Shown here piece by piece: positions 22,834-25,409 of a stretch of DNA of 34,611 nucleotides; position 1 is the stretch's first letter, and every line of letters begins with the position of its first letter. The stretch comes from an uncultured Chelativorans sp. (GTDB lineage Bacteria > Pseudomonadota > Alphaproteobacteria > Rhizobiales > Rhizobiaceae). The stretch is taken from the NCBI GenBank assembly GCA_964475605.1, contig CAYYZC010000006.1:1-34611 (forward strand). Reading direction: 5' to 3'. A program made the position numbers and the translations under genes. The notes beneath the pieces are model-generated. The model ran no database searches, was not told the DNA's origin, and saw only the letters and a list, made by a program, of their open reading frames with translations.

Positions 22834-25409
22834 CCTTTCCGGTAGCGCCGACCACGCCACCCGGCCGCCGCGACAGGGCAGCCGGCAGCCCAGGCCGGCA
22901 GTTGCGTCATGATCTGTTCGAGTTCTTCGACCGAGCCTTCGCCGTGGCGGCGCTCGGCAACGATCTCGTCGTGCACGGTGAGGAGCAGCGGATACCCGGC
23001 GGTCTCGAGGCGCAGCATCGCTTCGGCCATCAGATCGCGGGCGATGGCCTGCACGCAGTTGTGGACGATGAACGGCCCATCCTCGCCCAACACCACGAAG
23101 CGGTGCCGCGGCCCGGCGTTCAGGATGTCGAAAACCGGTTCGTCACGTCCGGGGCCGAGAGCAAACGGTCCGGCGGACAGCCATGTGCCAGGCGTCCGAA
23201 CCGGTGCCCGGTCAAGTCCTTCGCACGATGATGCATTGCGCCAGCCTTTCTTGGTAAGCACGCGGTGGTCTTCGGTCATCCGGACACCCGAGAGGGCGAT
23301 CGTCGGCCGGGTGCCGTTGCAGACCACGCCGTCGTGGGCGACCCATTCGACGCCGTCCCAGAGCCAATCCGTGTCGCGAATATCCTGGAGCGGGACCCAG
23401 CCCCGGGTCGTCAGAACCGGCGCATCGCCGGCCAGACAGTTTTCCGTCAGCAGGCCCCCGTATGCCCATTGCCGGGACCACTGGCGGGTTTTCGGGTCGA
23501 CGCCCCAATAGCAGATGCTGTCCTTGATGACGGGCTGGCGGACGATCGCGATTCCGAGCCCGTCGTATTCGACAAGGGCATCGCCGAAGCGCCGGATGGC
23601 TTCGTCTTCGTCGGCGACCCGGATACGGGCCTCCTCGGTCCACGGCATCACCTTGGGCCGGATGTCCGGCGAGGCGTAGGCCAGCGGTCGGCCGCTCGGG
23701 AGGACCATCCAGAGGAAGCCGCCCTTGACCCGGAACCGGATCCGTCCGCGCGCCGCGCTGACGATCTGGCCCGGGTTGCGAATGGTTGCTTTGGCCGCGT
23801 CTTCGAGTTCAGCCCACAGCGCCACCGTCGCCGGGTGCGCCTTGCGCCAAGCTGTCTTGAGCCGGTCGGCTTCCGCGTCCGAGACCACAAGGCCGTAATT
23901 AGCGGCCATGGCCTGGAAGGCACCGACGCCGCCCTGGTAGCCGCAGCTCAGCTCCATGACCTTGCCGCGCTGGCGGAGCGGGTCGTCCACCTCGGCGACC
24001 GGCACCCCGAAGGCGTTGCTGTAGGCCAGGATGTAGAGGTCGGCACCGGTCCCGGCATCGAAGTCCCGGAACGCCTTAATCTTCCACGTCTCGCCAGCAA
24101 GCCAAGCCAGCACCCGGCCCTCGATGTTCGAGAAGTCGGCCGCGATCAGGTCATGCCCGTCGGAGGCCGTCATGCAGGCCCGCAGCAGGGCGGAGACCAC
24201 GGCCATGGGCGGGCCATACAGCAGCCCGACCGAGTCGATGTCGCCGGACAGGACGGCTTCGACGGCGTGTTCCGTCAGCAGGTTCAGCGCGTCGCCCTTG
24301 GCCTTCGTGCTCGAGGTCTGGGCGACTGTCAGCCGGGGGAAATTATGCGGCTGTACGAGGCGCCCGGCCCACCGGCCGGTGCCGGCACCGTGATAGAGCA
24401 GTAGGCCGCGGAGGCGTTCGTCTGCGCACACGGCCGCCAGCATGCTCTTGAGCTTGGCCGTGGACGACTTCGCCGCCTCGGCCCGGATTTCGACGGCGCG
24501 CCGGGCGGCCCCGGTCACATCGCCGTCGGCGAGCATGGCGCGCACCGCCGGCTTCGCGACGCTTTCGGTGTCGACGCCCTCTTCTTGGAGCCAACGGGTC
24601 AGTTCGGCCGTCTTCGTCGCCGCGGCCACCCGGCCGCCCGTCACCTCGCGCAGCTCGGCATTCAGCCGCGCAGCCGCGCGCCCGGCGAGATCCTGCGCGG
24701 CCCGCACAAGCTCCAGATCGCAGGCGATTCCACGGTCGTTGATGCGTTGGTCCAACAGGTAGATCTGCAGCTCGGTCGAGGTGAGCGCGCGCACCCGGCC
24801 GGCAACGGCCATCTCGGCCCGGACATCCTGGCGGCAATAGGCGTAGGTCGTCGCCAGCTTCTGCGGGTCGATCTGCCACTCGATGACCTCGTCGCCGTCG
24901 AGGGTGTAGCGGGCCGGGTCGAACTCGGCCATCACGCGGGCCGCTTCGTACTTGGCGCCGTCGGTCGGCCTCCAGATCCGGCGCGGCTTGGCCACCTGAA
25001 GCATGACCCGCGAGCCGGCGGCGTCCTTCTGCTGGGCGACACCGAGCACCCGGGCCGTACGCTCCAGGTCGCGCGGGAGGGCCATGGCGGCGGCTTCGGC
25101 GGCCGTGCAGACGAATTGTTCCAGGTTGGCCTCGGGCCAGCCGTAGCGCGGCCCGGCGATGCGCCACCAGATCAGCCGTTCGAACGCCGCGTTCCAGGCG
25201 CGGATCAGGCCGCCGTCGCGGACGTGGCGGACGATCGGTTCTGGGCAGGGCTGCCCCGGCAGCCACAGGCCGACCTCGTCGCCGCCGACGGACCAGGCGC
25301 CGCAGAGGATGTCGGTTGTCGGGTGCTCGGCGTAGGGGTAGGCGCCCGCCCGCTTGATATCGACGCGGGACCGGGTTTCCCAGTCCAGGGAGAGGACGGG
25401 GCCGGTCAC
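22830..25409 (-). CDS. Family-A DNA polymerase with 3'-5' exonuclease domain, interrupted by a mini-intein
   Basis: 859 aa with a GTG start overlapping the upstream TGA. ExoI is LSLDWETRS. Pol motif A is [18 protein letters not shown], motif B is [16 protein letters not shown] and motif C is [10 protein letters not shown]. The intein lies between motifs B and C (see next feature). Confidence 0.85.
   Translation of the reverse strand: [859 protein letters not shown]
23058..23438 (-). mobile_element. Mini-intein (127 aa, no homing endonuclease domain) in the DNA polymerase
   Basis: ...[21 protein letters not shown]...[16 protein letters not shown]...[36 protein letters not shown]... The first Cys codon is 23438-23436, the terminal His-Asn is 23063-23058 and the +1 Cys is 23057-23055. 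Confidence 0.75.

Follow-up and report, generated by a model that had tools for sequence, protein, structure and literature searches.

A probable mini-intein in the family A DNA polymerase of a temperate phage and its likely origin from an intein with a nested out-of-frame HNH gene

Contig CAYYZC010000006.1 of the assembly GCA_964475605.1, assigned to an uncultured Chelativorans sp., was analysed over a stretch of 34,611 nucleotides (nt), and this whole stretch is referred to as the window. The window contains a phage gene for a family A DNA polymerase, and the reading frame of this gene includes a segment of 127 amino acids (aa) that had been predicted from the sequence to be a mini-intein (Table 1). 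The positions 23058–23438 and the 127-aa sequence given in this original prediction are exact for a translation of the minus strand, the strand itself having been left unstated. The plus strand reads as nonsense with a stop codon over the same positions, and the feature belongs to the minus strand.

The polymerase precursor is recognized by the Pfam DNA_pol_A model (E = 8.5e-15) and is 36–38% identical to annotated phage DNA polymerases. Its N-terminal part is a 3'-5' exonuclease-like region, and motifs A (DxSxxE), B (RxxxKxxxxxxxYG) and C (HDE) of family A polymerases are all present. When the C-terminal half in its spliced form is aligned with the mycobacterial Pol I structure 6vdc, four motifs are matched: ADFSNIEGR corresponds to motif A, VQAIARD to IQGSAAD and TVHDE to motif C, and motif B is matched as well. 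The alignments with orthologues and with 6vdc place the insert between motifs B and C, where it had been predicted to lie, one residue upstream of the conserved (V/I)Q(A/G)xAxD motif. This motif holds the minor-groove-contacting Gln (Q849) in the Klenow fragment. Because the 127-aa insert adjoins this motif, the unspliced precursor is expected to be inactive. The residue at position −1 of the insert is Asn, and the +1 Cys is encoded by TGC at 23055–23057 (−). Removal of the insert from the 859-aa precursor leaves a predicted spliced product of 732 aa, the length that the original prediction had calculated.

Polymerases that lack the insert are contiguous at this site and read ...YGGxxxEN-[A/I/V]-VQAxARD... 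across it. In a six-way alignment, the polymerases of Rhizobium phage RHph_N65 and Stenotrophomonas phage AXL_1 read GGxxxEN-I-(V/T)QAxARD through the site, and those of APSE-1, Caulobacter phage GB2A and Shewanella phage SFCi1 carry a larger insert at the same place, both ends of which are homologous to the 127 aa of the window. In DNA, the intein-less form of the site is ...GAGAAC/xxx/GTGCAGGC.... The orthologue comparison that had been proposed as a check thus shows a clean insertion of 127 aa, with no collinear segment in the intein-less polymerases. A homologue search by word index with the intein alone yielded four proteins, and the full polymerase query and an exhaustive profile search were used instead. 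The full polymerase query was used to draw the 120 closest polymerases from a collection of 5.8 billion proteins. The site is empty in 92 of these, and the +1 position is then Ala, Ile or Val, with Cys in two; genomes of the Rhodospirillales type, Arenibaculum and Azospirillum among them, are the sources of the nearest intein-less polymerases. Inserts of 110–320 aa are found in 12 of the 120. All 12 start with Cys and precede a Cys, and they end with His-Asn in 11 cases and with Ser-Asn in one. With the window included, the +1 Cys is therefore present in 13 of 13 insert-bearing alleles as against 2 of 92 empty ones.

An alignment of these 13 alleles reveals C1, G13, D28, G29, G37, T55, H58, W66, V102, D104, G109, R113, F114, V116 and N127 as invariant, and His126 is kept in 12 of them. 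Blocks A, B and G and the +1 Cys, on which the prediction had been built, are present in the window and conserved across the alleles. Since single-sequence domain searches were judged too weak alone, they were replaced by a profile of the 13 sequences and a structure model. Against the sequences of the PDB, the profile retrieves only inteins at E ≤ 0.003, the best matches being those of Mtu RecA (5e-5), Neq Pol (1.7e-4) and Spl DnaX (1.7e-3), and TEDH in block B of the window is aligned with TPDH of the Mtu RecA intein (VWATPDHKVLT). The AlphaFold2 model of the insert, built with the 13-allele alignment, has a predicted local distance difference test score (pLDDT) of 96 and a predicted template modelling (TM) score of 0.89. 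When this predicted model is compared with the PDB by Foldseek, the top 49 matches are all inteins or Hint domains, including the Mtu RecA splicing domain 3igd with a TM score of 0.82. Matches in BFVD, a library of viral structures, include the APSE-4 polymerase, other phage polymerases, terminases and proteins named 'Hint'. The profile, the model and the Foldseek comparison therefore agree on the Hint/intein identity that had been proposed.

The insert has the features of a class-1 intein, namely a predicted Hint fold, Cys1 in block A, TxxH, a terminal HN followed by Cys+1, and an in-frame insertion at a conserved site. The polymerase frame of the insert has no match to a nuclease in Pfam or PHROG, as befits a mini-intein, and the expectation that 127 aa would be too small to house an endonuclease held, none being detected. 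Other classes were considered and rejected. The fourth position of block F is Asp104 and not Cys, and Cys1 is present and invariant, which argues against a class 3 intein; a split intein is ruled out by the contiguous open reading frame (ORF). Bacterial intein-like (BIL) domains occur in variable regions of non-essential proteins and have no conserved +1 nucleophile. The insert of the window sits in a highly conserved polymerase motif and is followed by Cys, like those of all the other alleles, and a BIL domain was rejected. No second intein was found in the window among six-frame segments of at least 80 aa.

The large alleles at this site have an unusual organization. About 180 central residues in their polymerase frame are rich in Arg, Gly and Ala and are poorly conserved. 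DNA was read for six large or intermediate alleles, and in all of them the homing endonuclease is encoded by a separate HNH-type gene, nested in the +1 frame, and not by an in-frame domain. The intact nested ORF of L009 runs MHHRARDLTGQRFGC...LLCAPDFTNRYST. The nested ORFs match HNH endonuclease families of PHROG with E values of 1e-50 to 1e-59, and the +1-frame ORF of APSE-1, P46 (NP_051007), is annotated as an HNH endonuclease in RefSeq. Pfam and NCBIfam searches with the nested +1-frame ORFs returned no nuclease family and only weak helix-turn-helix matches. Between alleles, the central region is 49–54% identical in the +1 frame and 24–38% identical in the polymerase frame, although the nucleotides are the same. 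Because the +1 frame is the better conserved of the two, selection appears to act on the nested gene, the polymerase frame being merely kept open. An intact out-of-frame endonuclease ORF, which defines a non-canonical intein, is found in L001, L005 and L009 and is not found in the window.

The window retains a stump of this nested gene. The whole stump of 38 codons reads MHHRAKDLTGHRFGRLAHGCPPDRLLSAPDVTNRFSTS and then a stop codon, and a purine-rich stretch, AAGAAAGG, precedes it. It consists of MHHRAKDLTGHRFGRL, AHGCPPDR and LLSAPDVTNRFSTS in succession, and the first ~16 and the last ~14 codons of the original gene remain. The NASSCE residues of the intein are the polymerase-frame reading of the start of the stump, ATG-CAT-CAT-CGT-GCG (MHHRA). 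A DNA alignment of the window with L009, which encodes the 303-aa allele of protein P0024, shows an in-frame gap of ~531 nt (~177 codons) that covers the nested gene. Because the stump keeps the start and the end of the nested gene while the middle is gone, the mini-intein of the window is, as judged from these alignments, a decayed derivative of an intein of ~300 aa. The original prediction had called it either degenerate or trans-mobilised, and the stump bears out the first of these terms; the second is a separate reading that is weighed below. A profile hidden Markov model of the nested HNH family had no match among six-frame segments of the window of at least 80 aa, which are too long to include the stump.

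Other alleles have lost parts of the nested gene as well. A smaller deletion of 141 nt is found in L010, whose intein is 255 aa long, and the mini allele of L012 has the same 5' deletion boundary as the window. In further mini-inteins, of 110 aa in L014 and 131 aa in L013, the boundaries differ and the stumps are more strongly eroded, and endonuclease loss therefore looks recurrent in this set of sequences. The window would be a clean snapshot of the end of the homing cycle, in which the nested endonuclease gene has been cut to a stump and the splicing residues are intact, and the stump would record how the mini-intein was made.

The intein and the polymerase that houses it differ in their relationships. 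The Hint core of the window is 68% identical to that of the 303-aa allele of P0024, whereas the exteins of this pair are 47% identical. The closest intein-bearing extein is that of P0007 (58% identity), and its Hint core is 61% identical to that of the window. This incongruence, which is based on ~100 aligned columns, fits horizontal movement of the intein. Furthermore, the G+C content at third codon positions (GC3) is 0.772 in the intein as against 0.878 in the extein. Extein segments of 381 nt have a standard deviation of 0.028 and a minimum of 0.811, so that the intein lies below every one of them. The low GC3 is supporting evidence for a distinct evolutionary unit; its use as proof of a recent foreign origin was set aside, because dual coding could contribute.

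The segment is called an intein because of the comparative evidence, the sequence profile and the structure model, and not because of an off-the-shelf domain match. Very probably, it is a genuine class-1 mini-intein that is inserted in frame into the family A polymerase of a temperate phage and has decayed from an intein of ~300 aa at the same site. Its conserved residues and modelled fold suggest that it is probably splicing-competent. The polymerase gene is accordingly to be annotated as that of an intein-containing precursor and neither as an unusually long polymerase nor as a fusion.

Several points weigh against this interpretation. Off-the-shelf models barely detect the insert. The Hint-domain search that had been suggested as a check gives no Hint domain at E ≤ 1 with Pfam on the single sequence and a weak match to intein_Nterm with NCBIfam (E = 0.036), and a phmmer search of the PDB likewise reaches E = 0.036; such a search succeeds with the 13-allele profile and the structure. 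Splicing is inferred only from the conserved residues, the predicted fold and the need of the polymerase gene to stay functional. As the 5' boundary of the deletion is common to L012, the deletion may have occurred in this lineage or may have been inherited or transferred. The low GC3 could partly reflect a past dual-coding constraint and not a foreign origin. Finally, the integrase on the contig points to a possible prophage, in which the polymerase may be dead.

Table 1. Features of the polymerase gene and its mini-intein, nested ORFs of related alleles, and phage genes of the window
Feature	Coordinates	Strand	Details
Family A DNA polymerase precursor ORF	22830..25409	−	859 aa; GTG start; stop codon within coordinates; from ORF list
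N-extein	23439..25409	−	Polymerase residues 1-657
Class-1 mini-intein (Hint domain), probable	23058..23438	−	127 aa; polymerase residues 658-784; translation CLAGD...FIVHN
Intein block A	23397..23438	−	Cys1, predicted first nucleophile; C1 and G13 invariant in 13 alleles
Intein block B	23241..23288	−	Thr55-x-x-His58; T55, H58 and W66 invariant in 13 alleles
Intein blocks F and G	23058..23138	−	Asp104 in block F; end His126-Asn127
Deletion scar	23181..23192	−	Codons Pro83-Gly-Thr-Trp86; from DNA and protein alignments
Nested HNH gene stump	23120..23236	−	38 codons; +1 frame relative to polymerase; from frame translations
C-extein	22830..23057	−	75 aa plus stop; begins with +1 Cys, then VQAIARD...TVHDE (motif C)
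Nested +1-frame ORF, intact	L001:2422-3063		213 aa; Caulobacter phage GB2A
Nested +1-frame ORF, intact	L005:2569-3243		224 aa
Nested +1-frame ORF, intact	L009:2369-3007		212 aa
Nested +1-frame ORF, partly deleted	L010:2985-3485		166 aa
Nested +1-frame HNH-type gene	L004:2746-3168		
Major head protein	7349-8839		
Large terminase	10764-12551		
Primase/helicase	14758-17100		
Integrase	33138-34466	−	Tyrosine-integrase-like; PHROG integrase E 3e-65; near contig end

The proposed mechanism follows established intein chemistry. Translation would produce the 859-aa precursor, in which the 127-aa Hint domain would fold and run a splicing reaction of four steps. An N-S acyl shift at Cys1, aided by Thr55 and His58 of block B, would be followed by trans-thioesterification onto the +1 Cys and by cyclisation of Asn127, aided by His126, and an S-N shift would then join ...LLTEN to CVQAIARD.... 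As a result, the polymerase of 732 aa and the free intein would be released. Dependence of phage replication on this splicing, as the original prediction had put it, may reasonably be inferred from the insertion site. The in-frame loss of ~531 nt of the nested gene would leave the intein unable to home by itself. The mini-intein would persist because it is seldom removed precisely, whereas an imprecise excision would destroy the polymerase.

The genetic surroundings are those of a phage, as had been presumed: an integrase, a large terminase, a major head protein and a primase/helicase are encoded in the window. The integrase gene, which lies near the end of the contig, marks the phage as temperate. 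The contig may represent either a prophage or a phage genome that has been excised, and the host of the phage is probably an alphaproteobacterium. A megablast search with positions 15000–34611 of the window found no close relative among isolated phages. An identical polymerase precursor is present in four metagenome assemblies. The replication module is flanked by DNA methyltransferases of 352 and 502 aa and by a PAPS-reductase-like gene of 408 aa, at 17097–19378 (−) and 25406–26914 (−). The gene for the 502-aa methyltransferase overlaps the start of the polymerase gene by 4 nt, and an N6_N4 methyltransferase adjoins the polymerase in the relatives L010 and L013. The ORFs at 360–2021 (−), 2048–2932 (−) and 29398–31005 (−), of 553, 294 and 535 aa, respectively, have no PHROG match at E ≤ 1e-5.

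It is possible, though rather unlikely, that the mini-intein is still mobile during co-infection: an HNH enzyme supplied in trans by a related phage with the full allele would cut intein-less polymerase genes, and the mini allele would be the template for their repair. Alternatively, the mini-intein may be protective because it interrupts the target site of such enzymes. Several observations are consistent with such traffic. Full-length alleles, in which the nested HNH gene is intact, are very common at exactly this site, also in isolated phages. Mini alleles (110, 123, 127 and 131 aa) occur repeatedly and vary in their deletion boundaries, and the Hint core of the window is closer to that of a full allele (68% identity) than the exteins of the same pair are to each other (47%). 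However, no endonuclease homologue was found in the window among six-frame segments of at least 80 aa, the persistence of the mini-intein is equally explained by the difficulty of a precise deletion, and the incongruence between Hint core and exteins is based on ~100 aligned residues. Somewhat more doubtful still is the idea that the commonest intein of phage family A polymerases consists of two overlapping genes, one for the Hint domain and the other a free-standing +1-frame HNH gene, and that the window holds a 'vaccinated', endonuclease-dead allele that destroys the homing site. If so, the polymerase gene would be immune to competitor phages that bear the HNH gene in co-infection, or the allele would spread by using their enzyme in trans.

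The original prediction had added to the intein reading a conditional switch, in which redox conditions or metals acting through Cys1 and Cys+1 would gate the polymerase and hence lytic replication. Some inteins with Cys1 and Cys+1 are known to form reversible disulfide traps or to be inhibited by zinc, cisplatin or peroxide. Both nucleophiles of the window intein are cysteines, a stress-linked switch would be biologically meaningful in a temperate phage (integrase at 33138–34466), and 3nzm (a redox trap) and 5i0a (the RecA intein with cisplatin) are among the structural matches. However, nothing in the sequence is specific to regulation, and Cys1 with Cys+1 is the commonest configuration of inteins. 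No intein is present in about 77% of the closest orthologues, and the sporadic distribution together with the incongruence between intein and extein is what is expected of a selfish element. Moreover, the conserved internal Cys72 lies in NASSCE, where the same DNA also encodes the MHHRA start of the nested gene, and this dual coding, not a redox role, accounts for it. Such a switch is therefore regarded as improbable.

It is more improbable again that the intein has lost the ability to splice and that a decaying prophage has left the polymerase gene as a non-functional remnant. Besides the presence of the integrase, the intein has already suffered one large deletion. However, this deletion is exactly in frame and spares every strand of the Hint core, and the high pLDDT of the model speaks against decay of the fold. 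The 859-aa ORF is intact, with conservation of every splicing residue and of every polymerase motif that was checked, the adjacent replication, packaging and head genes are intact ORFs, and the identical protein recurs in four assemblies. That the insert is not an intein and is instead a lineage-specific subdomain of the polymerase, or a BIL or cleavage-only Hint domain, would agree with the failure of Pfam to detect a Hint domain when given the single sequence, but is hardly credible given the clean insertion into an otherwise contiguous and highly conserved motif, the distribution of the +1 Cys between insert-bearing and empty alleles, the canonical C1, TxxH and HN, and structural matches that are true inteins. 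The preferred interpretation thus remains that of a class-1 mini-intein produced by decay of an intein with a nested HNH gene.

When 1.84 billion cluster representatives (50% identity) were searched exhaustively with the intein profile, 3579 proteins reached E ≤ 1e-3 and 1120 reached E ≤ 1e-30; of the 150 best matches listed, the majority span the whole profile of ~300 positions. Given the 1120 clusters at E ≤ 1e-30, the data suggest that the out-of-frame nested HNH architecture may be very common among the family A polymerases of phages. Relatives of the Hint domain of the window occur in 195 genomes of isolated phages, and nearly all matches listed fall within polymerase genes; the site used in the window is also that of the intein in APSE, Caulobacter and Shewanella phages. 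It is well known that phage replication proteins contain inteins, even at this exact site, and that these are very abundant. The intein of the window belongs to the common and already described APSE-1 P45 type, a point that was absent from the original prediction, and no new biological question is opened by this element alone. Because it is a natural, compact mini-intein of 127 aa with Cys1 and Cys+1, it and its relatives of down to 110 aa are candidates for protein engineering. The mini-intein of 110 aa, at L014:258–587 in the partial metagenomic polymerase P0001, is homologous to that of the window and lies at the same site. To our knowledge, the smallest natural inteins described so far are longer (about 123–125 aa).

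A second intein site lies inside motif B. It is occupied in Jerseyvirus Salmonella phages, in Ruminococcus phages and in several metagenomic relatives (L013, L015 and L016), and both sites are occupied in P0026. In the window, the motif B site is empty and lies at about 23943–23960 (−), within residues 484–494 of the polymerase (VMELS-C489-GYQGG). C489, the +1 nucleophile in occupied alleles, is present at this empty site.

The P45 intein of APSE-1, a Hamiltonella phage of the APSE family, is a described system of the same kind. It is found in the same host protein family and at the same site (...GG../C...HN/C..QAxARD), it has C1, TxxH, HN and the +1 Cys, and its ends are homologous to those of the window intein, with 44% identity over all 127 aa. 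The original paper on APSE-1 is that of van der Wilk in 1999 (cited in PMC549080), and the P45 polymerase intein is described in the APSE literature. Unlike the window, the APSE allele is about 306 aa long (918 nt) and keeps P46, the +1-frame HNH ORF that the window has lost, and the exteins of the two are about 32–37% identical. The APSE polymerase intein and its differential loss have been noted (PMC7313666). The inteins of Caulobacter phages GB2A, RW, RLK and KcrB, of Shewanella phage SFCi1 and of the metagenomic proteins P0024 and P0007 also share the site and the Hint family of the window, and the stump of the window matches the start and the end of the nested ORFs in the Caulobacter, Shewanella and metagenomic large alleles. 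In these large alleles, however, the nested HNH gene is intact (212–224 aa) or partly deleted (166 aa, in L010), whereas 38 codons of it remain in the window.

Out-of-frame homing endonucleases within inteins have been called rare (10.1101/2025.01.02.630785; 10.64898/2026.09.14.751524). Those of cyanobacterial DnaX (10.64898/2026.09.14.751524) and of actinobacteriophage inteins (10.1101/2025.01.02.630785) overlap the intein in a different frame, as in the parent family of the window intein. However, the enzymes in the DnaX and actinobacteriophage inteins are LAGLIDADG or endonuclease VII-like, whereas the parent family of the window has an HNH enzyme by PHROG and resides in a family A polymerase of a proteobacterial type of phage. 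Mini-inteins have been explicitly predicted to be decay products of inteins with out-of-frame endonucleases (10.1101/2025.01.02.630785), and the stump of the window supports this prediction for non-canonical inteins.

Inteins in bacterial Pol I have also been mentioned (PMC4760082). The inteins of Jerseyvirus Salmonella phages, one of whose proteins is annotated as 'intein-containing DNA polymerase precursor', and the mini-inteins of Ruminococcus phages occur in the same polymerase family and have Hint domains that are 32–34% identical to that of the window. Unlike the window intein, they occupy the site inside motif B (GKA/C...HN/CELGLGYEGG). Among characterised inteins, the Mtu RecA splicing domain (2IN0/3IGD), the Ssp DnaB mini-intein, gp41-1 and Npu DnaE have the same fold as that predicted for the window, with TM scores of up to 0.82. 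The characterised mini-inteins are similar in size (125–150 aa) and match the window in their class-1 catalytic residues, at a sequence identity of 18–26%. The RecA and DnaB mini-inteins were engineered by deletion of an in-frame endonuclease domain, whereas the mini-intein of the window appears to be the product of a natural deletion of an out-of-frame nested gene.

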